The position numbers were made by a program, and so were the translations under genes. DNA of 64,000 bases from Candidatus Saccharimonadales bacterium. Lineage in GTDB: Bacteria > Patescibacteriota > Saccharimonadia > Saccharimonadales > UBA7683. The first letter of the stretch is position 1. Every line of letters begins with the position of its first letter. Location of the stretch: contig JAXMAA010000001.1 of NCBI GenBank assembly GCA_046350615.1, positions 8,480-72,479 of the forward strand, written 5' to 3'. A model generated the notes under the pieces. It was not told the DNA's origin and searched no databases. It was given only the letters and a program-made list of their open reading frames with translations. Positions 5,910-49,431 of the stretch are shown here, one piece after another.

Positions 5910-5924
5910 GTACTTATTGTACGA

Positions 5925-5949: not shown

Positions 5950-5975
5950 GCCCGGCGAAGGGTATACTTAGACAC

Positions 5976-10325: not shown

Positions 10326-10327
10326 TC

Positions 10328-10537: not shown

Positions 10538-10551
10538 CGGCAGTACAAATT

Positions 10552-10587
10552 AAAAACAGGGTGCGTTTGCGAGGACGCCCTGTTTTT
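10552..10587. terminator. Bidirectional rho-independent terminator between convergent genes
   Basis: 12-bp stem AAAAACAGGGTG / CGCCCTGTTTTT (one G-U pair) with a 12-nt loop. A-run and T-run flanks allow function in both directions. Confidence 0.7.
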
Positions 10588-10598
10588 AGATCAGTGAC

Positions 10599-12470: not shown

Positions 12471-12511
12471 CTCTATGATTATACCTTAACTCTCGAACAA
12501 AATATCCTGTT

Positions 12512-13300: not shown

Positions 13301-13394
13301 GTATTTTTTCTCCTATATGTATATATAAAAGAAGAGAAAGTAAAAGTAAAGAATTAACAGAGGTGATAGCAAGAATAAAATACCATGTGCTTAG

Positions 13395-14456: not shown

Positions 14457-14499
14457 ACATTAATTGATTATTTTTAATATACATGTTTAAATATAATTT

Positions 14500-15627
14500 A
14501 TGTACCGGCCAAGTGCTACATATGAATTTGCTCAAATAGACGAACCTCTCGAAATTGAACCAACGGTATTTCGAAGCTCTGTATTTGGCCAAGATGAACC
14601 ATACTCAGATGCTCTTATTAACTCGCTCTCTTTTAGCAAGGGGGCTTTTAAGCCAGAAACAATTCTATATGTTGAGGGTCGAAACTACTTTGTAGATCTT
14701 CAGGATAGAGCTAGGGGAGTATATGATACATTACAAGTTTCCGGTGCGGGGTATATTCAACCCTCTCAAGCCAGAAACGCACACAATGGCTTAATTATTA
14801 CAACCGCAGCGACTGGTGTGCAAGTTATACAACCACCCCAACCATATCATGATGGATCTGCGTTGTATGCACACATCACTGATTACTACGATCCCTCTGA
14901 AGAATCTCTGCTCCGTAAAGTCGTTGATCACTCACCGATGGGCGGCTATGCACATGACCTAGCAATTCGCAAGTGGGTGCATATGCGTAAAGCGGAAAGG
15001 TTATTTGCTGATAGTAATGTACTGGTTCCACTTTGTCAGGGCTACGTTGACTTTCCGCAGGTCGTTGACCAACTGGGTGAATCACAGCGTGGCATAATTT
15101 CACTCGTTCCAAATAAAGGGAACCGCCTGAACCGCGACCTCACTCCATTGTTGGGTTACGTTGATAGCCCCAGCAAAGCTGGTAGATACTACAGTGATAT
15201 TGTTGCAAAGAAGATGTATGCCACAGGGCTTGCAGCAGCTACGGTGCATGCGTCAGGTCTGGTGCACAACCAACTCACAGCCGGCAACGTTGACCCCTCC
15301 TTTACTAGACAAGATGGTTCAGATGTAGTTTTTGTGGCTGACTGGGAAACTCCGACTGAAATTATCCCAGAAGACGACCTACAAATGCGCGCACTTGATG
15401 TTATGAAGACTATCAGATCACTCACTTCAATAGCGATTAGAGCGGCAGAAATGGGCAATGCAGGGTTTTGGTCCGGCTTGGCAGCACAACAGGCTATTGA
15501 TATTTTATGCGGATACAACAATATAGAGAGCTTTGACTTTAAAGAAGATACCATTGAGAGAATCTCGCAGGTCATAGATGGTGGATCACGAGCAGGAGTT
15601 ATGGCTACTGCTTCATTTTTGGCATAA
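14500..15627 (+). CDS. Hypothetical protein with protein-kinase-like/APH-like C-terminal motifs
   Basis: HASGLVHNQLTAGNV (in the position of HGDLhxxN) followed by VFVADWE (like IDWE/DFG). The catalytic Asp position is Gln. Confidence 0.4.
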   Translation: MYRPSATYEFAQIDEPLEIEPTVFRSSVFGQDEPYSDALINSLSFSKGAFKPETILYVEGRNYFVDLQDRARGVYDTLQVSGAGYIQPSQARNAHNGLIITTAATGVQVIQPPQPYHDGSALYAHITDYYDPSEESLLRKVVDHSPMGGYAHDLAIRKWVHMRKAERLFADSNVLVPLCQGYVDFPQVVDQLGESQRGIISLVPNKGNRLNRDLTPLLGYVDSPSKAGRYYSDIVAKKMYATGLAAATVHASGLVHNQLTAGNVDPSFTRQDGSDVVFVADWETPTEIIPEDDLQMRALDVMKTIRSLTSIAIRAAEMGNAGFWSGLAAQQAIDILCGYNNIESFDFKEDTIERISQVIDGGSRAGVMATASFLA

Positions 15628-15703
15628 TTTGCAAATTTATGACAGCTCGTGTATCTTTTATTGCTGTTGCATTTGAAACTTAAATGCATACACTGGAATA
15701 AGC

Positions 15704-18088
15704 ATGAGCAAAAATAATCTTGTTATTGTAGAGAGCCCGGCTAAGGCGAAAACTATCGAGAAGTATCTTGGTAGTGACTTTAAAGTGATGTCTTCGGTTG
15801 GGCACATCCGTTCAATTGCCAAAAAAACTAAAGATGGCAAAGAGGCAATTGATGTAAAAAACGGTTTTGAAACTGTATACGAGATTGATCCGGATAAAAA
15901 GAAGGTCATCACCGAGCTAAAAAAAGCCGTCAAAGAAACGCAGGCTGTTTGGCTAGCAACTGATGAAGACCGTGAGGGTGAGGCAATTGCCTGGCATTTG
16001 TGTGAGGTCCTGAAACTTGATCCGAAGACCACCAAGCGGATTGTGTTTCATGAAATCACCAAAGGAGCGATTGAAGAGGCGATTAAAAATCCGCGGTACG
16101 TAGATATGAACCTCGTACATGCCCAGCAAGCACGGCAGATTTTAGATAGGATCGTTGGCTTTGAGCTCTCACCAGTCGTCTGGCAGAAGGTGCCAGGTGG
16201 TAAATCTGCTGGCCGAGTGCAATCACCGGCTGTTCGATTGCTTGTGGAGCGTGAGCGTGAAATTGAAAGTTTTGAAGGTAGCTTTCAGTTTAAAGTTACT
16301 GCTGAGTTTATGCATAATGGCGACCTTGTTAAGGCCGAGCTACCACAGCGTTTTGATACCGAAAAAGAGGCTCAAGAGTTCTTAGAAAGCCTCAAAAACG
16401 CTTCATTTACAGTAGGTAGCGTTGAAACTACTCCTGGCACTCGTAACCCTTCAGCGCCGTTCACTACCAGCACCCTGCAGCAAGATGCCAACAGTAGGCT
16501 CGGTTTTAGCGCCAAAGCCACCATGGCAGCCGCCCAGAAGCTTTACCAAGAGGGTAAAATCACCTACATGCGTACTGATTCGGTCAATCTAAGCAGCCAA
16601 GCTTTGGCCCAAATGACTGAGTTTATCAAAAAAGAGTACGGCGAGAAGTATCATCAATTCAGAACCTTCAAAACCAAGAATTCGAGCGCACAGGAGGCTC
16701 ACGAAGCCATACGCCCAACAGATGTGAAAACCACCTCTGCCAGTAGTGATAGCTACAACCAGAAGCTCTACGAACTAATCCGAAATCGCACCCTAGCAAG
16801 CCAGATGGCGCCTGCTAAACTGGAAAAGACTACAGTGAGCATTATAATTTCAACCAGCAAATACATCTTTGAAGCTAAAGGTGAGGTGATTTTATTTGAT
16901 GGCTTCCTGAGAGTATATGGCGGCAGCAAAAAAGACCCTGAGATTTTACCAGCACTCGTTGCGGACGATCGGCTGGAGCTAGAAATTGCATCTGCTCGCC
17001 AAATATTTGCCCGTCCACCAGCACGCTACACCGAAGGCTCGCTGGTTAAAAAACTTGAAGATCTTGGCATCGGCCGCCCATCCACCTACGCTACGATCAT
17101 CAATACAGTACAAGTACGAGGCTATGCAGAAAAAGGTGAAAGTGAAGGCGAACCACGCGATGCAATCGTTTTATCATACGTGCCATCCGGTCATTCTGAA
17201 CTTGTTTCAGGATCTACAAACGCCCAAGAGCAGATTCCGAAACAAGTTCGGAATGGCATCGTGCGTGAAGTTGTGCAAGAAAAAACCGGCTCAGATAGGG
17301 GCAAACTAGTACCGACTGCTGCTGGAAAAGTTCTCAACAACTTTCTAGTAGATCACTTTGACCAAGTGGTAGACTATGGTTTTACGGCTGCTGTAGAGGA
17401 AGAATTTGATCAAATTGCTGCTAATAAGTTGGCTCGTAATAAGATGTTAAACGAGTTTTATGATCCGTTTCACAAATTGATTGAAAACTCCGGCAGCATT
17501 GACCGCTCAACTGTCGCCCAAGCACGCGAGATAGGGGTACACCCTAAAACCGGAAAACCGATTTTAGCTCGATTTGGACGCTTTGGCCCCATGCTGCAGC
17601 ACGGTGCGACTGAAGATAAAGAGGCAAAACCGCAATTTGCGCCCCTTCCAAAAGGCGCAAAGCTTGAAACCGTCACGCTCGAGGAGGCCCTAAAAGCCTT
17701 CGAGCTGCCGCGAACCGTTGGCCAAACTGAAGATGGCAAAGAAATCAAAGCGAATATTGGCCGTTTTGGGCCTTATATTCAAGTGGAGAAGCTGTTTGTA
17801 AGTATTAAACCACTCGACCCGCACACAATCACACTCGAGGAGGCAAAAGAGCTCTACGCCGCTAAATTAAAGGCTGAGGCAGAGAAAAATATTGCCGATT
17901 TTGGCGATGGTATCAAAGTGTTAAACGGACGGTTCGGCCCCTACATAACCGACGGTACCAAAAATGCCAAAATTCCAAAAGACACCGACCCCAAGAAGGT
18001 TACCCACGAAGAAGCCAAAAAGCTCCTCGCCGAAGCCCCAGCAAAAGGCAAGCGCACCTTCAAGCGCCGTACTTCTAAAAAGAAATGA
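15704..18088 (+). CDS. topA: DNA topoisomerase I
   Basis: TOPRIM LVIVESPAKAKTIEKYLG, DEDREGE, active-site YMRTDS. The C-terminus has three GRFGPY-type repeats and a basic tail instead of Cys4 zinc fingers. Ends with TGA. Confidence 0.95.
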   Translation: MSKNNLVIVESPAKAKTIEKYLGSDFKVMSSVGHIRSIAKKTKDGKEAIDVKNGFETVYEIDPDKKKVITELKKAVKETQAVWLATDEDREGEAIAWHLCEVLKLDPKTTKRIVFHEITKGAIEEAIKNPRYVDMNLVHAQQARQILDRIVGFELSPVVWQKVPGGKSAGRVQSPAVRLLVEREREIESFEGSFQFKVTAEFMHNGDLVKAELPQRFDTEKEAQEFLESLKNASFTVGSVETTPGTRNPSAPFTTSTLQQDANSRLGFSAKATMAAAQKLYQEGKITYMRTDSVNLSSQALAQMTEFIKKEYGEKYHQFRTFKTKNSSAQEAHEAIRPTDVKTTSASSDSYNQKLYELIRNRTLASQMAPAKLEKTTVSIIISTSKYIFEAKGEVILFDGFLRVYGGSKKDPEILPALVADDRLELEIASARQIFARPPARYTEGSLVKKLEDLGIGRPSTYATIINTVQVRGYAEKGESEGEPRDAIVLSYVPSGHSELVSGSTNAQEQIPKQVRNGIVREVVQEKTGSDRGKLVPTAAGKVLNNFLVDHFDQVVDYGFTAAVEEEFDQIAANKLARNKMLNEFYDPFHKLIENSGSIDRSTVAQAREIGVHPKTGKPILARFGRFGPMLQHGATEDKEAKPQFAPLPKGAKLETVTLEEALKAFELPRTVGQTEDGKEIKANIGRFGPYIQVEKLFVSIKPLDPHTITLEEAKELYAAKLKAEAEKNIADFGDGIKVLNGRFGPYITDGTKNAKIPKDTDPKKVTHEEAKKLLAEAPAKGKRTFKRRTSKKK

Positions 18089-18163
18089 TCTGCCAAAGGC
18101 AGATACAACCGCCCCGCCTACTCAAGAACCGAGAGAGCCAAGCCTTGTTGTACCCTGCGAGCC

Positions 18164-18560
18164 GAGGATGTCTGAGGCCTGATGTAATCAGGCCGAGTTC
18201 CGCAGGCTCCAGAGTATGACAAGGTTTGGCGACCATCGTGCTTTTTGAATCTAGGCGGTGCTTTTGTTTTACTTTTGGCAGCAAAAGTAATGAAAGAAGA
18301 GTATAAGATAGTATCTCTAGGTATTTCTCCTTACCACTTTTGGCAGCAAAAGTGGAGCAAAACTGCCAACCAGAACTCACCAAGACGATGTTACGAGCAG
18401 TCAGTACCTCTCGGGCTGCTGCGGAACTCGCTCTCCTTGTTCGCTCAGACATCCTCACAGCGCCGGGAGCTACTAACTGCTCTCCACTCGGTTGGATCGA
18501 TGGTTGGGTGGGCTGCAGCGGCACAGGAGAGTCTTGCTGTTTTGGGTATTCTCATTTCAG
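18164..18560. ncRNA. Unknown conserved structured intergenic element, copy 1
   Basis: Shares perfect blocks with 48905-49185: a 23-mer at 18366-18388, an 11-mer at 18419-18429, an 8-mer at 18449-18456 and a 27-mer at 18482-18508. The hairpin ACTTTTG-GCAG-CAAAAGT occurs twice (18271, 18336). The strand is unresolved. Confidence 0.4.
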
Positions 18561-32797: not shown

Positions 32798-32889
32798 TAC
32801 TGATTAGTATACCGTATGCAAGCATAAAAGCATTACCGCAACAAGCAATTACCGCCCGAATCACAAAATTAAATACACACTACAAGCCC

Positions 32890-32958
32890 GTCATCCTGAA
32901 CTTGTCTCAGAATCCATGGCCTTTATTAGACTAGATCCTGAAACAAGTTCAGGATGAC
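32890..32958. repeat. GTCAT-module unit with perfect 16-bp terminal inverted repeat
   Basis: GTCATCCTGAACTTGT ... ACAAGTTCAGGATGAC, 69 bp in total. The right half also forms its own hairpin ATCCTGAA/TTCAGGAT. Confidence 0.8.
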
Positions 32959-32989
32959 GGTGAGGGGTTTGTGATTGGGGTATTAATTA

Positions 32990-34621
32990 CTACTTTAAAA
33001 TATCTCGTAGCTGCGCAAGATCTTCCTCGCTCAGCGCAATCCCTCGGGCACTTAAGAACGCCTCCAGCTCATCACGGGACTGTATAGGAGCTGCTTCGCC
33101 AGTATATTCTCGAATTAAAGCCAGCAGCTCCTCTCCGTAGCGTTCGATCATTTTTGGGCCAATACCAGAAATAAGCTTTAACTGCTTTTGCGACAATGGT
33201 TTATTCGTAGCTAGGGCCTCAAGTGTTTTATTACTGGCAATCATATAAAGCGGCACGCTGCGTTTTGAGCCTTCCTGCGAGCGCCAGGTCTTTAACAACT
33301 GTAAAAGTGCTTCATCAAGACCTTTGCCACTCGTTGCGATGCTCTCCTCATCTACCGGTATCTCTTCCGGTGTTTCGCGGGCGATTGCCTCCGAAAGCTG
33401 CCTTATCTCCTCATCAAAGCTAAAGATCTCCGGGTGCATTGCCATTGCCGTATTGTTGATACCTTTCAGATACAGGCCATCAAGACTTCGGACCCGAGAA
33501 AGCGCCACATATCCCATGCCAGGCGTAAAGGCTCGTGAAAGATCAATCTCCGCTGCGTCCAAGCTCATCCCCTGACTTTTATGGATTGTAATGGCCCAAG
33601 CTAAACGAAGTGGCAATTGCGTCACACGGGCGCGCTCTTTACCATCTTCCTCAAGCGCCCAACTATGTTGCTCTACGGTTAACAATTTGCCGCCACGTTG
33701 CAACTTGACCACAGGTTTGCCATCATGAAAATCCACCACTCTACCACGAGAACCGTTCACAAAGCCTTCTGAAAAGTTATTTGCCACGAACATAACTTCA
33801 GCGCCAATTTTCAGCTCTAAAACTTCAGGCGCAAGAACACTCTTCATCAACTGCTCAACCTTTGCCTGCACGCCGTAGGTTTCCATAACGAATGTTCGCG
33901 CATCGTCACTCAGTGCTTTAAGGTGCGAATCATTAATCTGCTCAACATCTTGGTTGTGCGAATACAGTTTTGTCACTGAAATATCTCGTGGTGCCTCAGC
34001 CCCAAGGCGCTCGCTTAAAGCATCAAAATGAACATCCAGCACTTCGCCCGCTCGCATTGCCTCAAGCAAATCAAGTAGCTGATCATTCTGCTGACGGTGC
34101 TGCTCGCTCAAATAACAAATTTTAGGATTTAATTCTTGCCATGCTGCGCTAAGATGAGCAAAATCAATGGTGGCATCACCTCTATTTATTGGCGGCAACT
34201 GAAACAAATCTCCCGTTAGAATTACCTGCATGCCACCAAACGGCTCGTCCGAATCGCGTAACCATTTTGCAACTTGGTTCACCATATCAAGCCGTTTACC
34301 GTGAATCATCGAAACCTCGTCAATAATCAGAATGTCGGTATTGTTGTAACGCTTCAGCAACCGATCGTTATCCTTCAACCACTTTTCATCCCGATCGCTA
34401 ATTTCATCACGAATTCCAAGACCTGACCAGCTATGAATTGTCGTGCCACCAATATGCGTAGCTGCAATACCCGTACTTGCCGTAATTGCCACGCGCTTTT
34501 TTTGTTTTTTAGCCCAGTCAATAAATTGGTTTAGTACATATGTCTTACCACTTCCAGGAGCACCAGTCAGAAAAACTGATTCACCGCTCATCATCACCCT
34601 CAAAGCCTGTATTTGTTTCAT
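32990..34621 (-). CDS. PIF1/RecD-like SF1 helicase with C-terminal HRDC domain
   Basis: Walker A GAPGSGKT, IIDEVSM, ITIHKSQG, and an HRDC-like tail (LLQLLKTWRSQEGSKRSVPLYMIASNKTLEALA). Confidence 0.85.
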   Translation of the reverse strand: MKQIQALRVMMSGESVFLTGAPGSGKTYVLNQFIDWAKKQKKRVAITASTGIAATHIGGTTIHSWSGLGIRDEISDRDEKWLKDNDRLLKRYNNTDILIIDEVSMIHGKRLDMVNQVAKWLRDSDEPFGGMQVILTGDLFQLPPINRGDATIDFAHLSAAWQELNPKICYLSEQHRQQNDQLLDLLEAMRAGEVLDVHFDALSERLGAEAPRDISVTKLYSHNQDVEQINDSHLKALSDDARTFVMETYGVQAKVEQLMKSVLAPEVLELKIGAEVMFVANNFSEGFVNGSRGRVVDFHDGKPVVKLQRGGKLLTVEQHSWALEEDGKERARVTQLPLRLAWAITIHKSQGMSLDAAEIDLSRAFTPGMGYVALSRVRSLDGLYLKGINNTAMAMHPEIFSFDEEIRQLSEAIARETPEEIPVDEESIATSGKGLDEALLQLLKTWRSQEGSKRSVPLYMIASNKTLEALATNKPLSQKQLKLISGIGPKMIERYGEELLALIREYTGEAAPIQSRDELEAFLSARGIALSEEDLAQLRDILK

Positions 34622-35540: not shown

Positions 35541-35602
35541 GCCTACAATGTACGTACAACATTATAAAAACACAAGCACAAGCGTACTTAATAACTGAGT
35601 AC

Positions 35603-35705
35603 CAAAACTCACCGGTGTCATCCCGGACTTGATCCGGGATCTAGTATTTGAACTGGATTCCCGTCTTCACGGGAATGACGGACGTGAGGTTTTTAGATTC
35701 AGGTT
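35603..35705. repeat. 103-bp double-hairpin GTCAT module, copy A
   Basis: Identical at all 103 positions to 41302-41404. Contains the hairpins ATCCCGGA-CTTG-ATCCGGGAT and ATTCCCGT-CTTC-ACGGGAAT. Confidence 0.95.
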
Positions 35706-35855
35706 ACTTCATGATCTGCATTTCACGGCTATGGAATATTCTGAATCTTAAAACCAAACAAACCTACGGATCACCCTCTTTCTGTGCTTATTTCATAACG
35801 AAGACGACTTTTCGAGGCTCGGATACATTAACCTATACCTTGAAACCCCGCCCTT

Positions 35856-35884
35856 GTCATCCTGAGCAACGTCGAAGGATCTAG
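35856..35884. repeat. GTCAT hairpin module variant
   Basis: GTCATCCTGAGCAACGTCGAAGGATCTAG, followed at 35920-35942 by TCGCTAAAGCTATGGCGGACAGG (22 of 23 identical to 2073-2095). Confidence 0.7.
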
Positions 35885-36042
35885 TGGGTATACACCAGAT
35901 CGGCTAGACCCTTTCTTACTCGCTAAAGCTATGGCGGACAGGTCAACAGGCCCAACATGACACACTAACAGATTGGGAGTTCCGAGATTCAGTTATAGAT
36001 TAATTTTGATTATTCAATACAATATGCTATAATTAGTATATT

Positions 36043-36825
36043 ATGAGCACTGAACAAACAACATCCCCGCTATCTGGCGACGATCAAGTAATAGCAGAAA
36101 CCTGGACAAAGGTTTATGGTCATAGACAAAACCAAGGTCAAGCTACGGCTGATCAAATGTCAGTACCGGAAGCGTTCCAACCACGCAGACGAGCTCGAAT
36201 TGGCAGAGTGGCTGGCTTTATAAAAAACCTGAGATTGCCCCGCGCCAAAGCCAAACACGAGGCCAAACATATGCGAACAGCCCGCAATGCCGAGTTTCAA
36301 AGCCTGCTTAGATCTGATGCTATGTTCCTTGAAGAGCATACAGAATCTCAATCTTCTATTGAAACGACAACCCCAAAACCCAATCAATACTCTGGGCTTT
36401 TTCGCAAAACCACGCGAGTTGGCTTGGCCATGGGTGCCCTTACACTTCTCTCATTTGGTCTCAATAACCACGTGCAATACCGGCCCGATAGCACCACGCA
36501 AACATCGAGAGCGCACACTTCTCAATCCTTTGGAACCAATGACACAACAGCGGCAGCAAACCATGCTATCTCAGTCGAAACCGCCACACCTGCTATAGCC
36601 ATCGCCGAGCAAGGCAATGATCGGACCATCCTAAGTTTCACCATAAATCAAGACACCCCGACTATCTGGCAGGGTGTTGAACAACAGCTTGAGGCATCGA
36701 GCGGTACGCCAGCCTCACCTCAACAGATTGCCGAAAATGTTGATCGAATCGGACAATTTTACGATGCGGACCCGTCCGTAGTGTATGCCGGGGATAGGGT
36801 CATTTTTGAACCAACGGCAGCCTAA
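36043..36825 (+). CDS. Hypothetical membrane-anchored protein
   Basis: ORF with one central TM segment (VGLAMGALTLLSFGL). The C-terminus is weakly LysM-like. Confidence 0.4.
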   Translation: MSTEQTTSPLSGDDQVIAETWTKVYGHRQNQGQATADQMSVPEAFQPRRRARIGRVAGFIKNLRLPRAKAKHEAKHMRTARNAEFQSLLRSDAMFLEEHTESQSSIETTTPKPNQYSGLFRKTTRVGLAMGALTLLSFGLNNHVQYRPDSTTQTSRAHTSQSFGTNDTTAAANHAISVETATPAIAIAEQGNDRTILSFTINQDTPTIWQGVEQQLEASSGTPASPQQIAENVDRIGQFYDADPSVVYAGDRVIFEPTAA

Positions 36826-37250
36826 AGCGTAATCTTTTCCGCACGAGCCTTATTTGCCCACTGGTCAGCCATTTCGTTACCCGGGTCGCCAACGTGACCT
36901 CGAACCCAAGTAAGCTTGGCTTTCGAGCTTCGATATAACGGACAAACCTCTTGTACAATATCTAGGTTTTTAATGCCACCTTTTTTCTGCCAGCCGTTAG
37001 CCTCCCAGGTTAGCGACCATTTGGTAATCACGTTGATCCAGAATTCGCTATCTGTAAAAATCTCACACTCTTCGCCGTTCGCATGTTCCAAGGCAGCAAT
37101 CAACGCCCTTCCTTCCATGCGAATATTGGTAGAATCCCCATCAAATCCAAGCCGCACCGGCTCCATCTTCTCACCATCCACTAAAATAACCGAAAATCCC
37201 CCCGGCCCCGGGTTCGGACTACAACTCCCATCAGTATAATAAACTTTCAA
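36822..37250 (-). CDS. rnhA: Ribonuclease HI
   Basis: YTDGSCSPNPGPGG, EGRALIAALE, IFTDSEF, HVGDPGNEMADQWA (DEDD residues in the expected order). Confidence 0.9.
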   Translation of the reverse strand: MKVYYTDGSCSPNPGPGGFSVILVDGEKMEPVRLGFDGDSTNIRMEGRALIAALEHANGEECEIFTDSEFWINVITKWSLTWEANGWQKKGGIKNLDIVQEVCPLYRSSKAKLTWVRGHVGDPGNEMADQWANKARAEKITL

Positions 37251-37251
37251 A

Positions 37252-37638
37252 CTACCCTACTTTCTTGCTATGTTCTTCAAGCCAACTAGCAATTACTGGC
37301 ACATCCAGCTTATCAGTTGCAACTTTCACCGCAAAATTTTCGACTTCCCCTTCTTGAAAATCAATATGGTATCCGTTTTTCTCTACAAATGTCAACGCTG
37401 CCAATGTTCCGGTACGCTTATTGCCATCAACGAACGCATGATCAGCAATAATTGCTCGCATAAGTGCAGCCGCTTTTGCAAAGATCGTGCTGTATAGTTC
37501 TTCTCCAAAAACAACTTGCGTTTGCGTTGCTAGTGCAGATTCAAGCCTTCCAAGATCACGAATCCCATCAGAACCACCGGTTTCTTGAATAACAAGAACG
37601 TGTATTTCCAGCAGCCCCTCTAAATCTATGCAATTCAT
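37252..37638 (-). CDS. doc: Doc (death-on-curing) Fic-fold toxin
   Basis: The Fic/Doc motif HAFVDGNKRTG matches HxFx(D/N)GNKR. Confidence 0.9.
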   Translation of the reverse strand: MNCIDLEGLLEIHVLVIQETGGSDGIRDLGRLESALATQTQVVFGEELYSTIFAKAAALMRAIIADHAFVDGNKRTGTLAALTFVEKNGYHIDFQEGEVENFAVKVATDKLDVPVIASWLEEHSKKVG

Positions 37639-37862
37639 CGTTCGGAAAGGTTTTTAAAGTCCGTTTTATATCGCTCCAGAATTCCACGAGCAACATCCAT
37701 CGTATTGGAAGTATTTGAACCTCTTCCTTTTGTCTGCTTTGAGAGAACAACTACTTCAACCTCATCACCAATCGAGAGGTTCTGTTGCTTCAAGTCCTTC
37801 GCAGGAATGGTTACCCCAGCGCTCGAGCCAATTTTTATAATTTTTTGAATGCTTTGAATCAT
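37635..37862 (-). CDS. AbrB/MazE/SpoVT-type antitoxin for Doc
   Basis: IIKIGSSAGVTIPAKDLKQQNLSIGDEVEV swapped-hairpin motif. Overlaps doc by 4 nt. Confidence 0.8.
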   Translation of the reverse strand: MIQSIQKIIKIGSSAGVTIPAKDLKQQNLSIGDEVEVVVLSKQTKGRGSNTSNTMDVARGILERYKTDFKNLSER

Positions 37863-37904
37863 AGATTCATTATAACAATATTATAATAAAGATCAACACT
37901 TGAG

Positions 37905-38588
37905 TTATAAGTTTTCAAATCTCCCATCTTTATAAGGAGGTTCACAAATCTCTGCAAATACGAGACCGCTCTCACCCGCCTGCCACTGCATAACTTGACC
38001 TATCTCAACCTCAACTGATCGTGCATTATCAGGGGTAATATCATCAAAAACATATTCTTGCGCTACACCATCTTCGGAAACTACCGTAAGCACCCCTGCT
38101 CCTCTAATAAATTGCTCGACCGTTTTCGTACCGCCCAGCACCCGTTGATTAGGCGTTTTCGCATTTGCCGCTACTTCTACCACGGCCACGTCCTCAGATA
38201 TCGTATCGGCAAATGCATATTCATCACATTCAATATTTTCATAGGGATCATGTGATCTTATCAAACGCACTGATCTTCCTCCAAACAGTATGCTTTCCGA
38301 CTGAGGAATTCTAGTGCCACCATCAACCTCTTCCAGGTAGCGTTTTATCACGTCTTGGTCGCCAGCAGCTCTCTTGTGCGTAATAAGCTCTTGTCTCATC
38401 TGTAGCCTTATTTCTCTTGCTCGTTTTATTGCAGCATCATAAAACGGCATGATTGGATATAGCCGACCATAACCGGTTATCTTATCTGGATGATCATCTG
38501 GCATACTACGTTGTCTGCGACGTTCCAAAGCAGCGATCGATGCTACTTCAAGATGATCTTCAATTCTTTGTCTAAATTTCTCACTCAT
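37905..38588 (-). CDS. Hypothetical protein (C-terminus possibly cupin-like)
   Basis: ORF only. The C-terminal beta-rich segment VEIGQVMQWQAGESGLVFAEICEPPY gives a weak call. Confidence 0.35.
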   Translation of the reverse strand: MSEKFRQRIEDHLEVASIAALERRRQRSMPDDHPDKITGYGRLYPIMPFYDAAIKRAREIRLQMRQELITHKRAAGDQDVIKRYLEEVDGGTRIPQSESILFGGRSVRLIRSHDPYENIECDEYAFADTISEDVAVVEVAANAKTPNQRVLGGTKTVEQFIRGAGVLTVVSEDGVAQEYVFDDITPDNARSVEVEIGQVMQWQAGESGLVFAEICEPPYKDGRFENL

Positions 38589-38687
38589 AGCAACTCCTTA
38601 TCTGTTACTAAGTTACTATAATACTTTTTTCACAATATGTTAAAAAGTTGTCTGGACTTTCAGACATTTGTGTGCTAGGATAAACAC

Positions 38688-39467
38688 ATGCATGTTGATA
38701 ACTCACTGCAAAATAAAGTTGTCCGATATTTGAAACAACTGGGCTTAGAGCGTGAACAAGCGCTTGTGTATCTGTTTTTACTTCAAAACGGCCAAAATAC
38801 CGTTCTTGCAATTAGTAAAGGGCTTAAAACCGGCCGTACCAAGCTCTACCCTCTTCTGGAGGAGCTTGCAGAAAAGCAATTGGTTGTCATCCACGAACGT
38901 CATTATGGCACTAGCTATGAGGCGCAGAAGCCAGAAGTTATAGAATTTTTAGTGAGCGAACACGAACGCAAGGCAGAAGCGCTCCGAAGCTCGTTACCCG
39001 CTGCAGTCAACATTTTAGAGAATTTGCAGCAACAATCCCCTACCCACACCAAAATCGTAGAATATCGCGGCATAGATGGTCTCAAACAGATGAACTTCAA
39101 TCTGAGCAAAGCCACCAAAGAGTACCGTGTTTTTGAGCTAGCCGGGCTCGATAAGCACCTTGGTACACATTTTGCCCAGAAGATGCGCGAGCGCTATCAA
39201 GAGCGCAACCTAAAAAGCTTCGATATCACAAACAATCCAGACCGAGCCAAAGAACCAGGCGCCGAACTACCCGGCTCGCAAACGGCATATATATCACCTA
39301 GTGTATTCAAGATCGAATTTGAAACCTACATTTACGACAACGTGGTTGGCCTACTTAACTACGAGAGCAACGATATCTTTGGCGTAGAAATCTACAGCGA
39401 AAAACTCGCCCGCCAACAAACCCAGCTTTTCAACCTGCTGTGGAACCAAGCAAAGATATTAAACTAG
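38688..39467 (+). CDS. TrmB-family transcriptional regulator
   Basis: N-terminal LKQLGLEREQALVYLFLLQNGQNTVLAISKGLKTGRTKLYPLLEELAEKQLV winged helix. Confidence 0.75.
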   Translation: MHVDNSLQNKVVRYLKQLGLEREQALVYLFLLQNGQNTVLAISKGLKTGRTKLYPLLEELAEKQLVVIHERHYGTSYEAQKPEVIEFLVSEHERKAEALRSSLPAAVNILENLQQQSPTHTKIVEYRGIDGLKQMNFNLSKATKEYRVFELAGLDKHLGTHFAQKMRERYQERNLKSFDITNNPDRAKEPGAELPGSQTAYISPSVFKIEFETYIYDNVVGLLNYESNDIFGVEIYSEKLARQQTQLFNLLWNQAKILN

Positions 39468-39472
39468 TATTA

Positions 39473-39928
39473 TTACTCAGTAACGGTGAGCATGCCGACA
39501 TGGCGGTCGTCGATGTGGTCGTGGAAGCCATGGGTGCCAACGGTTTCGGCGGTGAAAGTGGCAGATTCGCCGGGCGCCAACACACGCATATTCATTTCCG
39601 TATTTAAACGATGTGTTGGATGGTCATCTGATGAAAATTGCACTTGTGTTGAAGAGTCATTTTTCACCGTTATTATCGCGCCCTTCTTAACAGTGAGATT
39701 ATTGGGCGAAAAGCCATTGTTGGTAAAAGTAATTGTGGCATTCTGGGCATCCGCCTCTTCTTCACTTGGCCCAGCTGAAGCTTCTTCAGGTTCAGTACCT
39801 TCACTCGTCTGAGTATCCGTCACCTCGCTAGCTGGCGCGTTCGCGTCCTGATTGAGTGCAAATACCGCTACCAAAATAGCTGCCAAGATTGCCGCTATGC
39901 CAATTCCGATTATGACTTTTTTGCTCAT
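39473..39928 (-). CDS. Membrane-anchored cupredoxin-fold protein (no type-1 Cu Cys visible)
   Basis: N-terminal TM, acidic linker, then ITFTNNGFSPNNLTVKKGAIITVKNDS...HGFHDH. Confidence 0.6.
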   Translation of the reverse strand: MSKKVIIGIGIAAILAAILVAVFALNQDANAPASEVTDTQTSEGTEPEEASAGPSEEEADAQNATITFTNNGFSPNNLTVKKGAIITVKNDSSTQVQFSSDDHPTHRLNTEMNMRVLAPGESATFTAETVGTHGFHDHIDDRHVGMLTVTE

Positions 39929-40578
39929 ACTTGTTCCTTCATGCCTCGCTTATCGTACCAGTAATTATACACGATCGCCGCAATCAAGCTCACACCGTAC
40001 ACATACCAAACAGCTTTATACCAGCTTACAGAAAGCTCGCGCCCCAAACTCAGACCATGATAAAAAATCATCGCCATCGCAACAACCTGCGCCCAATCGA
40101 CATACTTCCACCACGATTTCTTCTGAAATCTCCGCTTCAACTCAAACAACAAAAAGATGATCAGACCGATACTACCAAGCCCAATCGCAAACTTCATTGC
40201 ACCATAAACCTCCAGATAGCTCTGTGGCGGCAAGCCAAAACCATCTTTGTAGAGTTGAAAAATAAACAAGCCAGGGTGTAAAAGAATAAATGCCAAAACA
40301 AGATAGCTGCTTACCATAGAATACAGTTTATTCTCTTTCGCAGACACTCCAAGCACTCGCCTCAACGAGCCGAGCACATAATGTGTCCACATCAAACTAA
40401 ATGCCGCTAAACCAAGGAGCGGAAAGATATCGTAAGTAGCCAAAGAGCCGCCATTAAGTCGCTCCCCGGCCCATACAACAGTAGCTAGCACGAGAACAAA
40501 TAACCCCAGTCCCCACGAACAAACTCGAAGAATAGTTTTATTGTTCATATGTTTATTGTAACAGATCAGACGACTCAA
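39925..40578 (-). CDS. Polytopic membrane protein, ferric-reductase/cytochrome-b-like
   Basis: Six predicted TM segments with conserved-looking His residues (WTHYVLG, LHPGLF, FYHGLSLG). 4-nt overlaps with both neighbouring genes. Confidence 0.45.
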   Translation of the reverse strand: MSRLICYNKHMNNKTILRVCSWGLGLFVLVLATVVWAGERLNGGSLATYDIFPLLGLAAFSLMWTHYVLGSLRRVLGVSAKENKLYSMVSSYLVLAFILLHPGLFIFQLYKDGFGLPPQSYLEVYGAMKFAIGLGSIGLIIFLLFELKRRFQKKSWWKYVDWAQVVAMAMIFYHGLSLGRELSVSWYKAVWYVYGVSLIAAIVYNYWYDKRGMKEQV

Positions 40579-40976
40579 ACTAACCGCGCATGTTTGCTTT
40601 GACGTGAGAGTTTTTTATCAAAAGTCAGAAGCTGCACACCCTGTAGTTCTGCGTACGTTGCCAAGCAAGCATCGGCAAAAGAGATTGCCGGATGCTCAAC
40701 GTAAAACGGCAAGGCTTTTGCTAAGAGCTCTCGATTACAATTTACCTTGGGATGCTTCAAGATAATCTCCGCAATCTCTGAAACCTCTTTGCGCGAATAG
40801 CCGAGACGTGAGGAATGTAAAATCCACACCACCTCCGCCCACGCAAGATCTGCAATATGTACTTCTTTCACGCTCGGATCCTTAAGAACAGCAATCACCT
40901 GCTCTGCTTGATCTGGAATATCTTGCAGTATCCAACGCAACAATAAGTTTGTGTCAAATGCAACCGAACTGCTCAT
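40575..40976 (-). CDS. vapC: PIN-domain toxin VapC
   Basis: An N-terminal acidic residue (AFDTNLLLR), later D/E positions, and a TFD C-terminal motif; paired with an AbrB-type antitoxin. Confidence 0.8.
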   Translation of the reverse strand: MSSSVAFDTNLLLRWILQDIPDQAEQVIAVLKDPSVKEVHIADLAWAEVVWILHSSRLGYSRKEVSEIAEIILKHPKVNCNRELLAKALPFYVEHPAISFADACLATYAELQGVQLLTFDKKLSRQSKHARLV

Positions 40977-40979
40977 ATG

Positions 40980-41282
40980 CTACGCTCGATCTTTCCATGC
41001 TTGATCACGAAGCTGTTCAATCTCTTCAACCAAAAGTGGCGCAATACCTCGCTCTTTGCGATGTTTCTGCACCTTTTTTTGCAGTCGCTCAAACTCTACC
41101 CAATAGTCATCTTTCTCCAAAATTATCTGGCCCTTAACTTCTTTCACGCGCAGCCTATCAGATGTAGAAATACCAAGTTTTCTGCGAATAGTCACCGGCA
41201 CAGTTACCTGACCCTTGCTCGTAATTGTTGTGCTAAATGTTTTCATAGGTATTACTTTATCAAAAGTAATACCTAATGTCAA
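40980..41282 (-). CDS. vapB: AbrB/SpoVT-type antitoxin VapB
   Basis: TITSKGQVTVPVTIRRKLGI motif; 3 nt upstream of vapC. Confidence 0.8.
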   Translation of the reverse strand: MTLGITFDKVIPMKTFSTTITSKGQVTVPVTIRRKLGISTSDRLRVKEVKGQIILEKDDYWVEFERLQKKVQKHRKERGIAPLLVEEIEQLRDQAWKDRA

Positions 41283-41301
41283 GGTAATACCACTTGACTC
41301 T

Positions 41302-41404
41302 CAAAACTCACCGGTGTCATCCCGGACTTGATCCGGGATCTAGTATTTGAACTGGATTCCCGTCTTCACGGGAATGACGGACGTGAGGTTTTTAGATTCA
41401 GGTT
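41302..41404. repeat. 103-bp double-hairpin GTCAT module, copy B
   Basis: Identical at all 103 positions to 35603-35705, in the same orientation. Confidence 0.95.
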
Positions 41405-41437
41405 TTTTGTGGCCCAAGCCTCAAGATCTCTCCCAAC

Positions 41438-41555
41438 GTCATCCCCAACTCGATTGGGGATCCAGTTATGTACTAGACTCTCAGTATAGCTTCGTTACAC
41501 TCAGTACATAATTCGACCCTTCTTTTAGCTACCAAATTAGCAAGCTGAGAATGAC
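41438..41555. repeat. GTCAT-module unit (hairpin plus distal inverted terminus)
   Basis: GTCATCCCCAACTCGATTGGGGATCC at the left end and GCTGAGAATGAC at the right end. Confidence 0.5.
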
Positions 41556-41650
41556 AGATCTGAGGTTTCGAGGTTTGGGCCAAACGTCCATTCCCGAAAA
41601 CTTGCACTAAAGTATGGCTAGTCGGCCAACCTCCAGTGTAATATCGAGGG

Positions 41651-41919: not shown

Positions 41920-42522
41920 TCAGAAGTCGATATCAGAAAGAATTTTAATAAGCGCTTCGGTATATACAGGATCTTTGATGCTATGCGGCGCAGATACAAC
42001 CTCAATAGGCTCAACATTAAAATCTTTAGCTGACTTTTTCACTCTCTCGACTAAGTATGGAACTTTACTCTTTTCAAGTTCTCCATAAGTAAAGATTATT
42101 TTGACTCCCGCACTTTTTGCCTGCCGAACAAGAACTTGAGCACTATATTGCCTTAGGTCGGCAAGACGTTTTTTGCCAAACCTCATACCACGGATATAGG
42201 CTGCTTCTGTTGCAATATCTTCTTGAAAATAAGGAGATAGTGATGCCAGCAAAACAAGATCTGGTCGTAACTCATTGGCAGTAATCAAGGCCACCATTGC
42301 GCCAAATGAATTGCCGACCACAATATTAGTATCACTCTTTTGTTCTTTATATAACTGTCTGAACTGTTGACAAAATTGAGAAACAGTTGTAAATCTCCAG
42401 CTAATATCTACTGGCACCACTCTATAGCCAAGCACCTCTAAACCATCGCGCAATGGCTTGAAGGCTACATCTGTCGCAGTCCGCTTGGTATTGTAACCAT
42501 TAATAAGAAAGAGTGTCGCCAT
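41920..42522 (-). CDS. Alpha/beta hydrolase
   Basis: Nucleophile elbow GNSFG with LFLINGYN at the N-terminus. The start is taken at MATLF (42522), which removes the overlap with glyQS. Confidence 0.7.
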   Translation of the reverse strand: MATLFLINGYNTKRTATDVAFKPLRDGLEVLGYRVVPVDISWRFTTVSQFCQQFRQLYKEQKSDTNIVVGNSFGAMVALITANELRPDLVLLASLSPYFQEDIATEAAYIRGMRFGKKRLADLRQYSAQVLVRQAKSAGVKIIFTYGELEKSKVPYLVERVKKSAKDFNVEPIEVVSAPHSIKDPVYTEALIKILSDIDF

Positions 42523-42541
42523 GCAGTTAAACCTCAGTTCA

Positions 42542-43885
42542 CTACAGCTCTTCAATCTTCACCCGTTTTTGTTCGGTCGTATCCCGATCACGAACGGTAA
42601 CAGTTCCGTCTTCAAGCGTATCAAAGTCGATTACTACACAGTATGGTGTACCGATTTCATCTTGACGGCGATAGCGTTTACCAATATTCCCGTTATCGTC
42701 CCAGGTAACGTTACCGTATTTTTTCTTCAGTGCAGCAAAGACCTCTCTCGCCTTCTCCACAAGCTCCGGCTTGTTCTTTAGCAGCGGCGAAACACAAAAT
42801 TGATACGGCGCAAGATGGGTTGGCAGCTTCAAGTACGCACGCGCCTCACTATTCACCTCATCCTCTTGGTACGCAGCACATAGCACCGCCATCAACGCTC
42901 GCTCAACACCGAATGAGGGCTCGATCACGTGAGGAACAAATTTTGTGTTCGAACCTTTTATAGTGTATTCCATGCTCTTGCCAGAATTATTCTGAATATT
43001 CATCAGGTCGAAATCTGTACGGTACGCCATACCCAAAAGCTCATCCCGACCATGCGGAAAGTCGAACTCAAAATCGATCGTACGCTTGCTATAATGCGCC
43101 CTATCCTCCTCTGGAACTTCAAGTTCATGCACACTCTCTTTTGGTAGACCCAACGCCGCAAACCACTCATGAATTTTTACACGCCACTGCTCAAAAAGCT
43201 CCTCCCACTGCTCTGGATCAACAAAGTATTCAATCTCCATTTGCTCAAATTCGCGCGAACGAAACACAAAATCACGCGGGCTAATTTCATTCCGAAACGC
43301 CTTACCTTGCTGGGCAATACCAAACGGCAAATCTGGATAAAAACTATCCACCACGTTCTTAAAGTTCGTGAAGATACCCTGCGCAGTTTCTGGCCGCAAA
43401 TAGCTCACCGAACTTTCATCACTCACCGGCCCAACATGGGTTGTGAACATCATATTGAAAGTTCTCGATTCCGAAAGCGGATTCTTATCAGGGCTCACAA
43501 TGTTGTTTTCTTTAATTGCCGTATCCATCTGCGCCATCGTCATGCCGGTCGGGTCAATACCATTATCTTTCAGAATATGATCAGTACGATACCGCTTCTT
43601 AGTTACAGTATCCTCACAAAGTGGATCAACGAATGTATCAACATGCCCGCTTGCCTGCCAAACCTTCTGGTTCATTAAAATTGCCGCATCGACACCGTAC
43701 ATATCCTCGCGGTCTTCCACAAAAATCTTCCACCAGAGATTCATAATGTTACGCTTGAGTATCACACCAAGCGGACCGTAATCCCACGTTCCAGAAAGCC
43801 CACCATACACCTCACTACCCTGATAAATAAACCCACGCCGCTTACAGAGGCTCGTGATTGTCTCTAAATTTAATTCGCTACTCAT
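42542..43885 (-). CDS. glyQS: Glycine--tRNA ligase (dimeric class II, GlyQS)
   Basis: RGFIYQGSEVYGGLSGTWDYGPLG, FRNEISPR (motif 2), GVERALMAV (motif 3), and a C-terminal anticodon-binding domain. Confidence 0.95.
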   Translation of the reverse strand: MSSELNLETITSLCKRRGFIYQGSEVYGGLSGTWDYGPLGVILKRNIMNLWWKIFVEDREDMYGVDAAILMNQKVWQASGHVDTFVDPLCEDTVTKKRYRTDHILKDNGIDPTGMTMAQMDTAIKENNIVSPDKNPLSESRTFNMMFTTHVGPVSDESSVSYLRPETAQGIFTNFKNVVDSFYPDLPFGIAQQGKAFRNEISPRDFVFRSREFEQMEIEYFVDPEQWEELFEQWRVKIHEWFAALGLPKESVHELEVPEEDRAHYSKRTIDFEFDFPHGRDELLGMAYRTDFDLMNIQNNSGKSMEYTIKGSNTKFVPHVIEPSFGVERALMAVLCAAYQEDEVNSEARAYLKLPTHLAPYQFCVSPLLKNKPELVEKAREVFAALKKKYGNVTWDDNGNIGKRYRRQDEIGTPYCVVIDFDTLEDGTVTVRDRDTTEQKRVKIEEL

Positions 43886-48221: not shown

Positions 48222-48704
48222 TCAATACTTATAGAGGTACAGGGCGCCCTGAACGGCTTTTGGCTTCTTGTTAGGAATTTGAAACGTATAACTGACCAGT
48301 TGACTGCCCTTTTTTAGTTCTTTTGAAAGTTTGGCGTCGAGCTTTGGCATGTATTTATCCAGCAAAAAGACGAATACGCCTTTGGTCTCTGGCGACAGAG
48401 TAATCTTCCAGAAGTTTTTACAGCGCACTGTAACTAAATCTCGAACCTTCCGAGTGCGCCACACGGCAACTGCCCATACAAACGGATTTAGTTCGTAACC
48501 GTAGCAGCGAAGACCGCGCCGCGCCGCAGCCACCAAAAGTGCGCCGTCACCGCAGCCAAGATCAACAAACACCTCACCCTCTTTAAGGCCCAGCATATCG
48601 AGCGCTTGCTCCGCCTGCTCGCGCCGCGTTGGCAAATACGGCGCGCCGTAAAGCAGCACGAAAGCAAATGGCAGAACAATCAAGCATAGCGCCAGCCAAA
48701 TCAT
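48222..48704 (-). CDS. Class I SAM-dependent methyltransferase with N-terminal TM
   Basis: Motif I VFVDLGCGDGALLV. The start is taken at MIWLAL (48704). Confidence 0.7.
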   Translation of the reverse strand: MIWLALCLIVLPFAFVLLYGAPYLPTRREQAEQALDMLGLKEGEVFVDLGCGDGALLVAAARRGLRCYGYELNPFVWAVAVWRTRKVRDLVTVRCKNFWKITLSPETKGVFVFLLDKYMPKLDAKLSKELKKGSQLVSYTFQIPNKKPKAVQGALYLYKY

Positions 48705-48904
48705 ACAACCACCTTTTTTAAATCCAGATAACCCTCGCAAAGCGAGTCAGCCAGCCTCCACCCCCTCACAAAAACCCGAATACCGGAAGCTTTGTTTTTC
48801 CGAGTCAAGGAGCAACTTGCCCGAACCCATAACTTTACACTTTGTGAGGGATGCTTGTCATTGTTGCGACGCGGAAAAAACAAAGCTGGAGGTATATCGA
48901 GCTT

Positions 48905-49185
48905 TTGGTGTCGGGGGTGCAGTTTTGTTTTGCTTTTGCTGCCAAAAGCGAAGAGAGAAACACGGTTTTTTATACCCCTACTTTTTGATAGCAAAAAGAT
49001 AGCAAAAACTACCAACCAGAACTCACCAAGACGAAGCTTCGTACCACACTTTGTTCTTGGGTCACTGCGGAACTCAGCCTGATTAACATCAGGCTTCAAA
49101 CATCCTCGCGACGCCAGGAACAAAGCATGGTGCTCCACTCGGTTGGATCGATGGTTGGGGAGCTGCATCGGCAGATGGTAGTCGA
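48905..49185. ncRNA. Unknown conserved structured intergenic element, copy 2
   Basis: Perfect blocks shared with copy 1 at 49012-49034, 49065-49075, 49100-49107 and 49133-49159. The hairpins GCTTTTG-CTGC-CAAAAGC (48932) and CTTTTTG-ATAG-CAAAAAG (48981) covary with those of copy 1. Confidence 0.4.
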
Positions 49186-49227
49186 TTCTAAATTCTATAG
49201 AGCTTGTATCGAGCACCGTCTGTTTGA

Positions 49228-49431
49228 TCATGGGGTGAATTTTTGTTTGATGATTTCTACTTGGTTTTTGGCATCTTTCAGCTGAGCTTCTAGCTCCTGC
49301 GAAAGCTTCAAGGCCTGCTCGTATTTTTCAAGCGATTCTTCCACCGTAATTTCTTCAGACTCAAACCAAGCCAGCAAGGCCTCAAGCCGTTCCATCTTCT
49401 GGGCAATTGTGGTTTTTTTACTTTCTGACAT
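49228..49431 (-). CDS. xseB: Exodeoxyribonuclease VII small subunit
   Basis: Small helical protein (LEALLAWFESEEITVEESLEKYEQALKL); overlaps xseA. Confidence 0.85.
   Translation of the reverse strand: MSESKKTTIAQKMERLEALLAWFESEEITVEESLEKYEQALKLSQELEAQLKDAKNQVEIIKQKFTP

Follow-up and report, generated by a model that had tools for sequence, protein, structure and literature searches.

Introduction

Repetitive extragenic palindromic (REP) sequences of the CGTC type are defined by a CGTC tag (variants TGTC and CCTC), a stem of 8–9 bp opening with A-T and T-A pairs, a loop of 4–5 nt, and a CCA tail, and are mostly found as inverted dimers (Di Nocera, De Gregorio, and Rocco 2013, PMC3733652). The dRS3 repeat of Neisseria, with the formula ATTCCC(N8)GGGAAT (PMC3898611), corresponds to CGTC-1, the Rickettsia palindromic elements RPE-4 and RPE-6 have been classed as CGTC REPs, and no dedicated transposase has been tied to these repeats (PMC3733652). 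Hairpins of the Ssn-related motif (SRM) accompany SsnA, a single-domain GIY-YIG protein of ~94 aa whose gene is typically flanked by SRM on both sides; the Ssn proteins of Neisseria and Wolbachia bind the hairpin solely as single-stranded DNA (ssDNA) and nick it a few nt 5' of the tag, characterised Ssn do not bind RNA, and in N. meningitidis Ssn trims incoming transforming ssDNA and lowers the recombination of segments flanked by NTS, the consensus of which is CGTCATTCCCGCGMAVGCGGGAATCYRG (Chenal et al., Nat Commun 2025, PMC11893778). Here, we describe two identical 103-bp direct repeats and an ssn-like gene in 64,000 nucleotides of contig JAXMAA010000001.1 (hereafter the window), from a Saccharibacteria metagenome-assembled genome (MAG). 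We propose, with a probability of about 0.8 for the whole taken as one claim, that the repeats are recent copies of a paired-hairpin element of the CGTC-REP/dRS3/SRM family, that the ssn-like gene, predicted to encode a nuclease, forms with its flanking hairpins a candidate cognate SRM-ssn-SRM cassette, and that the genes between the repeats are, as their synteny indicates, ancestral chromosome content and not repeat cargo or a mobile island.

Results

Two identical doublets of tagged hairpins

The elements under study are the following.

35603–35705: left 103-bp unit, in which two inverted SRM/CGTC-REP hairpins form a doublet
35616–35644, plus strand: SRM hairpin A of the left unit, TGTCATCCCGGACTTGATCCGGGATCTAG, with a TGTC tag, an 8-bp stem, and a 5-nt loop
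35653–35680, minus strand: SRM hairpin B of the left unit, CGTCATTCCCGTGAAGACGGGAATCCAG, with a CGTC tag, an 8-bp stem, a 4-nt loop, and a CCA tail
41302–41404: right 103-bp unit, identical to the left unit
41315–41343, plus strand: SRM hairpin A of the right unit, a match to the SRM pattern
41352–41379, minus strand: SRM hairpin B of the right unit, a match to the SRM pattern

A first-pass annotation of this DNA had reported the two repeats and described each as a pair of hairpins framed by GTCAT...ATGAC, and both statements hold. The units agree at 103/103 positions in direct orientation, with 5,699 bp from start to start, and shuffled sequence gave no comparable match to the unit or its parts. 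A repeat search stretches the pair to 110 nt at 97% identity, since to the left only 4/7 positions agree over 7 nt; to the right, the identity breaks off sharply. The first hairpin is built on ATCCCGGA/TCCGGGAT with a loop of 5 nt and the second on ATTCCCGT/ACGGGAAT with a loop of 4 nt, the outer arms of the left unit are partly complementary (CAAAACTCAC... / ...GTGAGGTTTTT), and the predicted ssDNA fold of the unit has an outer stem that encloses both hairpins (z = -3.4).

The family to which these hairpins belong, as well as its partner gene, had gone unrecognised in the first-pass annotation. GTCAT followed by a perfect stem occurs at 8 sites of the 64-kb window, against 0.065 expected. Alignment of 10 hairpin sequences showed pairing in 97.5% of the cells of the 8-bp stem and compensatory changes in 5/8 stem pairs, a figure matched by 0/500 shuffles, the first two pairs (A-T and T-A) being invariant in all ten. 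The loops count 4 or 5 nt, and 6 nt in L216, a contig of a related strain (L numbers denote the loci fetched for comparison). A CGTC tag is carried by the hairpins at 5577, 5950 (minus), 32889, 32959 (minus), 35680 (minus), 41379 (minus), and 41437, and a TGTC tag by those at 35616 and 41315, whereas the 3' tail is CCA in hairpins B and C (the latter in the element adjoining the right unit), CTA in hairpin A, and CTC in the hairpins flanking ssn. The tag, the stem and loop, the CCA-type tail, and the inverted dimers that together define a CGTC-tagged REP are thus all found in the window, with tags pointing outward and tails inward in each doublet, an orientation described here independently of the published HH/TT classes.

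The SRM search pattern of Chenal et al. (2025), HGTCWYN(0-2)YYVSBRHN(0-5)WNVSBRGN(0-2)RNCYNB, finds exactly four matches in the window, which are the hairpins of the two 103-bp units, where 0.19 would be expected from shuffles. Hairpin B (ATTCCCGTCTTCACGGGAAT) fits the dRS3 formula exactly and departs from the Neisseria NTS consensus solely in its inner stem, while neither hairpin A (ATCCC...) nor the ssn-flanking hairpins (N9) fit that formula; the dRS3 fit denotes the same motif class (CGTC-1) and not the repeat population of Neisseria.

An ssn-like cassette in the same window

A gene of the type expected for a partner lies 30 kb from the 103-bp repeats.

5610–5909, minus strand: ssn-like gene, predicted 99-aa single-domain GIY-YIG nuclease (Pfam GIY-YIG, E = 6e-16)
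5577–5605, plus strand: SRM hairpin beside ssn, CGTCATTCCCAACTTGATTGGGAATCTCG
5922–5950, minus strand: opposite SRM hairpin of the pair around ssn, inverted and with its tag outward

Pfam PF01541 covers residues 28–102 of a 121-aa open reading frame (ORF), which amounts to almost the whole 99-aa protein, and the latter displays the motifs YVY (7–9), YIG (21–23), and REK with E69, in line with the conserved GIY/YIG tyrosines and catalytic Glu of such proteins. The source MAG annotates the product as a 'GIY-YIG nuclease family protein', and homologues, mostly of ~95–100 aa, number in the thousands, with lengths of 93–108 aa. Its one relative of solved structure is UPF0213 (1ZG2), whose weak match (E = 5e-5) would fit a GIY-YIG subfamily other than that of 1ZG2. 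The inverted hairpins on both sides read CGTCATTCCCAACTTG(A/G)TTGGGAATCTCG. The same motif-ssn-motif layout is present in L091, L092, and L214, the cassette adjoins pth in relatives too, and in the relatives that carry it Ssn shows 76–100% amino-acid identity; the hairpin GTCATTCCCAACTTGATTGGGAAT with its CTC tail flanks ssn in L091 and L092, including where the protein is just 76% identical.

In L091 (1530–1831, JGI sample 3300045378), ssn has ACG in place of ATG and an extra early base, so that just an 89-aa ORF devoid of the first GIY motif is called, which corresponds to either a pseudogene or a low-coverage sequencing error.

Empty sites and the age of the copies

Three stretches that contain doublets in the window are nearly closed up in L082, a contig of a relative at ~90% nucleotide identity.

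41291–41585: 294 bp in the window, 19 bp in L082
35586–36844: 1,258 bp in the window, p260 gene included, 20 bp in L082
32837–32992: 155 bp in the window, 14 bp in L082

Both 103-bp sites are therefore empty in the relatives at 90%. The contig L216 (ENA ERZ17987007), of a strain at 96% identity, covers vapB and its upstream region and is without a 105-bp segment between CTCAAAAC and CCCAAGC, that segment being the right 103-bp unit; it keeps the neighbouring resident element, whose hairpin stem bases differ but are compensated. From these comparisons, the right unit appears to have been gained here, or to have disappeared from L216, at a divergence below 4%. The earlier proposal of a recent duplication or gene conversion is consequently borne out by the identical units, by the right unit missing from L216, and by the empty sites at 90%, and the identity of the two units indeed contrasts with the differences seen among the other family members of the window. 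Loss of ssn function in the relative, suggested by the altered ssn of L091, was considered as the cause of the empty sites and rejected: the sample that yielded the empty-site contig L081 also yielded L214, where the encoded Ssn shows 100% amino-acid identity. The spacer 30-mer of the unit has no exact match in the public genome and metagenome contig collections searched, among which the source genome does not figure; the composite 103-bp unit is lineage-specific. The exact hydrolase, GlyRS, p287 (P0001), and the protein of 61523–62734 likewise gave no record.

The other doublets of the window

With relaxed criteria, the window contains about eight inverted doublets, or ~1 per 8 kb. Besides the two 103-bp units and the pair around 5577–5950, these are as follows.

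2003–2117: second-subtype doublet, intergenic
17180–17251, plus strand: older, partly decayed doublet in topA, in frame and encoding VPSGHSELVSGSTNAQEQIPKQVR
32862–32990: diverged doublet between PIF1 and the GH1 gene, with hairpins at 32889–32917 (plus) and 32931–32959 (minus)
35855–35962: second-subtype doublet, GTCATCCTGAGCAACGTCGAAGGATCTAG ... ATGAC, related to 2003–2117 and confirmed in L219
41411–41580: resident family member abutting the right unit, partly decayed

The doublet at 35855–35962 and the element at 41411–41580 went unmentioned in the first-pass annotation. The latter retains an intact hairpin C (41437–41465, plus strand, CGTCATCCCCAACTCGATTGGGGATCCAG) and a decayed partner ending ...GAGAATGAC at ~41557, and its orthologue is present in L216 and absent from L082. 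As ssDNA, 32862–32990 is predicted to form one long hairpin (z = -7.0), and its site is empty in L082. The doublet of topA (15704–18088, plus strand) occupies 72 bp and is common to the 96%-identical orthologue P0164, whose DNA (L093) has both hairpins, while most orthologues at ~84% identity lack it. In P0167, P0175, and P0194, this position is taken by different insertions whose hairpin-derived peptides are similar (e.g. ...SRSRGNDG), which suggests that it is a recurrent insertion hot spot, as with the RPEs of Rickettsia.

Segments of 37 and 64 nt at 18359–18508 are repeated at 49005–49159 with 78–89% identity and equal spacing; each copy lies within a minus-strand ORF (18075–18524 and 48701–49231), and these ORFs are probably paralogous small genes.

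Wider distribution of hairpin A

The exact 25-nt hairpin A, GTCATCCCGGACTTGATCCGGGATC, was retrieved from at least 120 metagenome contigs (L094–L213) with a GC content of 0.30–0.73, the sources among the matches listed being soils, sediments, marine, and fermentation samples. In the 136 occurrences listed in these metagenomes, position -1 is a C in 81 and a T in 47, position +1 is a C in 110, and position +2 is an A in 105; among the matches listed, just the tag and the tail are conserved around the hairpin, and not the outer arms. Tags-outward homodimers account for 11 of the 120 metagenome loci listed, and an ssn homologue lies near the hairpin in 1/120 stretches among these matches. The occurrence of hairpin A across 30–73% GC would reflect either horizontal spread of the element or extreme constraint by a conserved nuclease.

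Discussion

Points weighing against the proposal

Several observations speak against the reading of the 103-bp units as recent copies of an Ssn-associated hairpin element. The activity of the 5610–5909 protein is predicted from its sequence, and NCBIfam gives no match for it. The inner stems of the hairpins of the 103-bp units differ from those of the ssn-flanking hairpins and, given that an altered palindrome with its structure kept can abolish Ssn activity (Chenal et al., PMC11893778), the 99-aa nuclease may not act on the hairpins of the units; a second ssn may lie elsewhere in the genome. The SRM pattern misses the ssn-flanking hairpins and the other hairpins of the window, although these still share the tag, the outer stem, and the tail. 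The left site is not a clean insertion, as 1,258 bp with a gene stand against the 20 bp of the relatives, and parsimony alone cannot separate a gain here from a loss in L216. Finally, the copy count of the exact unit is limited to the 64-kb window of a contig of at least 351 kb.

Possible conversion between older doublets

The alternative that survives best, which we nonetheless hold to be unlikely, is ectopic gene conversion, by which two older diverged doublets would have been homogenised over a 103-bp tract. The mismatch cluster that closes the identity on the left lies in an apparent continuation of the terminal inverted repeat, the identity tract itself starts inside a CAAAAC common to the terminal repeat of the resident element, and the two loci are just 5.7 kb apart; furthermore, the orthologous hairpin C differs between the 96% strains by paired stem changes, which suggests copy replacement. 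However, L216 has no doublet at the right position that could have been converted, the 90% relatives are empty at both sites, and the gain of 105 bp is the simpler reading. A conversion templated on short CAAAAC/SRM homology would look alike, and no convincing target-site duplication was found at the three insertion sites, so that insertion and conversion are not fully separable.

A possible regulatory role

That the units are instead functional RNA or regulatory elements, namely a small RNA (sRNA), a terminator or attenuator, or a protein site acting on vapB and p287, is improbable. Both copies stand just upstream of promoter-like sequences of minus-strand genes: the right unit starts ~20 bp upstream of the -35 box of the predicted vapB promoter (41282–41254, minus strand, TTGACA-17-TAAAGT), and its sister on the left stands upstream of p287. 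In addition, a consensus scan flags hairpin A as terminator-like, and the left unit gives a sub-threshold, full-length match (35591–35712, minus strand) to the FtrB family, which is owed to the NTS-like hairpin in the FtrB consensus. Nevertheless, no Rfam family reaches its gathering threshold, relatives carry the same operons without the element, and RNA is not bound by the characterised Ssn. The units may still exert a secondary effect on regulation, which would be compatible with copies of an Ssn-associated element.

The vapB promoter region itself (41249–41291) harbours repeated inverted motifs, GGTATTAC / GTAATACC, which are kept in all relatives and are probably the VapB operator.

A possible miniature transposable element

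Decidedly improbable is a classical miniature inverted-repeat transposable element (MITE) moved in trans by a DDE transposase, e.g. the product of the ORF at 13551–14405, in which the hairpins would be incidental. The unit ends in imperfect inverted repeats, CAAAAC-TCAC / GTGAGGTTTT, the element of L216 has a perfect one of 14 nt (CGACTCTCAAAACC), and a transposase-like ORF does exist within the window; the termini to compare with those of any insertion sequence are CAAAACTCACC.../...GGTTTTTAG. Yet neither copy shows a target-site duplication, the inverted repeats around the 13551–14405 ORF are unrelated to the unit ends, what is conserved across genomes is the tagged hairpins and not the outer arms, and no transposase was linked to CGTC REPs by Di Nocera et al. 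(PMC3733652).

The bracketed genes and the question of an island

The first-pass annotation had viewed the repeats as the limits of a composite island, that is, of an acquired toxin-antitoxin cassette mobile as one 5.7-kb unit. The content of the bracketed block is as follows.

35706–41301: bracketed block, comprising p260, rnhA, doc, antitoxin, p227, trmB, cupredoxin, membrane protein, vapC, and vapB
36043–36825, plus strand: p260, an ORF of 260 aa
36822–37250: rnhA, RNase_H (Pfam)
37252–37638: doc, Fic/Doc (Pfam)
37635–37862: MazE-type antitoxin (Pfam)
38688–39467: trmB, TrmB (Pfam)
39473–39928: cupredoxin, Cupredoxin_1 (Pfam)
39925–40578: membrane protein, weak Ferric_reduct match (Pfam)
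40575–40976: vapC, PIN (Pfam)
40980–41282: vapB, MazE-type (Pfam)

Pfam thus supports rnhA, doc, the antitoxin, TrmB, and the vapB-vapC-membrane-cupredoxin operon as first listed, but not the 'cupin-like' ORF at 37905–38588, which has no Pfam or NCBIfam match; p227 likewise has no NCBIfam match. The p260 ORF, absent from that list, matches neither Pfam nor NCBIfam, and none of the loci fetched carries a homologue of it; the gene is specific to this lineage and came in along with two hairpin doublets.

In L081–L087 (~90% nucleotide identity, e.g. GCA_964643895.1), the gene order of the block is kept with the repeats at neither end, and reads glyRS, peptidase S51, vapB, vapC, membrane protein, cupredoxin, TrmB, p227, MazE, GDSL lipase, rnhA, p287, and PIF1. 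On this synteny, all the block genes except p260 and doc are considered ancestral at this position. A more distant set of 80 glyRS loci of Saccharibacteria/Patescibacteria (1.37 Mb) reveals a common backbone made of glyRS, 1–8 kb of variable sequence, rnhA, and PIF1, so that the rnhA gene of the block belongs to the syntenic core, its place between glyRS and PIF1 being kept in many Saccharibacteria; these 80 loci, used for synteny alone, show no family hairpins, the SRM pattern giving 2 chance-level matches.

An island mobilised by the repeats is therefore very improbable, and the DNA between them does not have the character of a composite transposon or genomic island bounded by direct repeats. 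Its composition, proposed as a check, is ordinary: the GC content of the block is 44.8% versus 45.6% elsewhere (SD 0.8%, 5.6-kb windows), GC at third codon positions is 42.8% versus 44.0%, and its tetranucleotide distance is below average. No deletion product or block-less strain, which had also been suggested as evidence to look for, was encountered among the 7 related contigs covering the block. What can be said for an island is that direct repeats identical over 103 bp are of sufficient length for a RecA-dependent deletion, so that recombination between them is physically possible, that the glyRS-PIF1 region varies from 1 to 8 kb among Saccharibacteria, and that doc is swapped for a GDSL lipase in relatives. 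But the block is in place and in order where the repeat sites are empty, a core gene lies inside it, and the right repeat is younger than the block. As the window contains about one doublet per 8 kb, a bracket of 5.7 kb corresponds to ordinary spacing.

Accessory-gene turnover is generally high between glyRS and PIF1. Where Doc/Fic is encoded here (37263–37751), the 90% relatives have a GDSL-family lipase (L082, 8745–9515); this swap lies downstream of the conserved MazE-type antitoxin, inside an otherwise colinear block. An alpha/beta-hydrolase-like ORF by glyRS (41920–42555) is replaced in L081/L082 (4000–4699) by a Peptidase_S51 gene, and L081 possesses an additional HSDR_N_2-like gene.

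Elsewhere in the window, the ~7 kb from dprA to topA (~8600–15650) have as their counterpart in L093 (1220–2120), from the relative at 90%, ~0.9 kb and a single 199-aa ORF. Along with a regulator of XRE type and a kinase-like ORF, this stretch holds a 284-aa ORF (13551–14405) whose N-terminus may resemble that of a zinc-ribbon transposase, and is a better island candidate than the block first flagged.

As for a second copy produced by mis-assembly of the MAG, for which one might invoke L219, a same-strain assembly of low coverage that breaks off 49 bp away from the left unit, it is hardly credible in view of the distinct unique flanks on both sides of each copy, which are colinear with relatives, of a unit length of 103 bp, below that of long reads or of the k-mers typical of final assemblies, and of the related elements present at the same right-hand locus in another strain. 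L219, an independent assembly at 99.8% identity, confirms 35754–37083, and it is together with L218, another short same-strain contig, the sole match in look-ups of doc and p260. The same strain, at 99–99.9%, also occurs in ERR15976514 and ERZ724538.

A possible mechanism and its meaning

If the 5610–5909 protein behaves as its described counterparts do, the layout of the units would have direct consequences for incoming DNA. With the tags outward, each doublet would show one forward motif per strand, and the predicted cut sites would lie in the outer arms of the unit; a single strand over the region would then be severed on either side of the 5.7-kb block, which would reproduce the published NTS-gene-NTS layout. 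Saccharibacteria are described as naturally competent (PMC10633639, PMC10187176), and the window contains dprA (7679–8536), whose orthologue in L093 bears the DprA Pfam domains, so an ssDNA substrate for Ssn may well exist in this organism. The right unit would have been added upstream of vapB, beside the older resident element, after the split from the 96%-identical strain. The specificity of the nuclease, its effect on transformation, and the way in which the doublets are copied are here extrapolated from sequence.

These results place Ssn/SRM-type repeats and their gene in Saccharibacteria, where they are apparently new, the main text of Chenal et al. (2025) making no mention of them. They also dispose of the toxin-antitoxin block as an island lead, the repeats belonging, as ordinary representatives, to a repeat-and-nuclease system already described. 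For these competent, ultra-small, uptake-dependent epibionts, restriction of transforming DNA specifically as ssDNA would matter physiologically. Furthermore, how CGTC-REP/SRM repeats multiply was left open by Di Nocera et al. (2013) and Chenal et al. (2025), and the series of strains, with empty sites at 90%, one unit missing at 96%, and both units in this genome, provides along with the in-frame topA doublet and the conserved ssn cassette natural material on doublet gain. Mobility is testable here, since strains at 90%, 96%, and ~100% differ by whole doublets, the copies are identical, and the genome is small.

Comparison with known systems

The Rfam family RF02748, FtrB (Francisella sRNA B), resembles the unit in that its consensus has an NTS-like hairpin, uCauuCcCGCGuAGGCGgGaauC, followed by a second hairpin, and the 103-bp unit can be aligned to the 115-nt model from one end to the other; however, with 26.7 bits against a gathering score of 66, the unit is not a member and the resemblance is one of hairpin architecture only. 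The FtrB family may itself derive from an SRM doublet.

With REPIN/RAYT systems and bacterial interspersed mosaic elements (BIMEs), the units share the form of a non-autonomous inverted doublet of tagged hairpins with a larger ssDNA fold, and the long hairpin of 32862–32990 is REPIN-like in its fold too; REPIN/RAYT further resemble the present case by a gene that is single-copy, inherited vertically, and bordered by these same hairpins, by the lack of target-site duplication, and by near-identical copies indicative of recent within-genome copying. They differ by their GTAG tag and their IS200/IS605-like HUH tyrosine transposase, where CGTC/TGTC tags and a GIY-YIG protein are found here, and the units are thus outside that group. 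The analogy was raised by Chenal et al. themselves (PMC11893778), and by extension the SRM doublets might be active non-autonomous mobile elements in this Saccharibacteria lineage, copied by the enzyme of the SRM-ssn-SRM cassette, with Ssn as the 'transposase' of CGTC-tagged REPs and the GIY-YIG counterpart of RAYT/REPIN; we regard this as a tentative and somewhat doubtful idea, in which transposition stands as an analogy because no strand-transfer activity is known for Ssn.

Resemblance to the CGTC REPs extends to the tag, the 8-bp stem, the 4–5-nt loop, the CCA-like tail, and the inverted dimers, and also to heterodimers with conserved spacers, an in-frame intragenic copy (topA here), and mosaic intergenic arrays, the differences being the adjacent Ssn cassette and the N9 or ATCCC variants represented by hairpin A and others. 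The Ssn/SRM system is matched by the CGTC/TGTC tag, the AT-initiated 8-bp stem, the C after the palindrome, and the YRG-type tail, as well as by the ~99-aa GIY-YIG gene between inverted hairpins and by many dispersed copies bracketing genes. Its present representative differs in its host, a Saccharibacteria MAG in which it is known from sequence, in inner stems unlike those of NTS, and in the strain-level gain or loss of a whole doublet, which is seen here and lay outside the study of Chenal et al.

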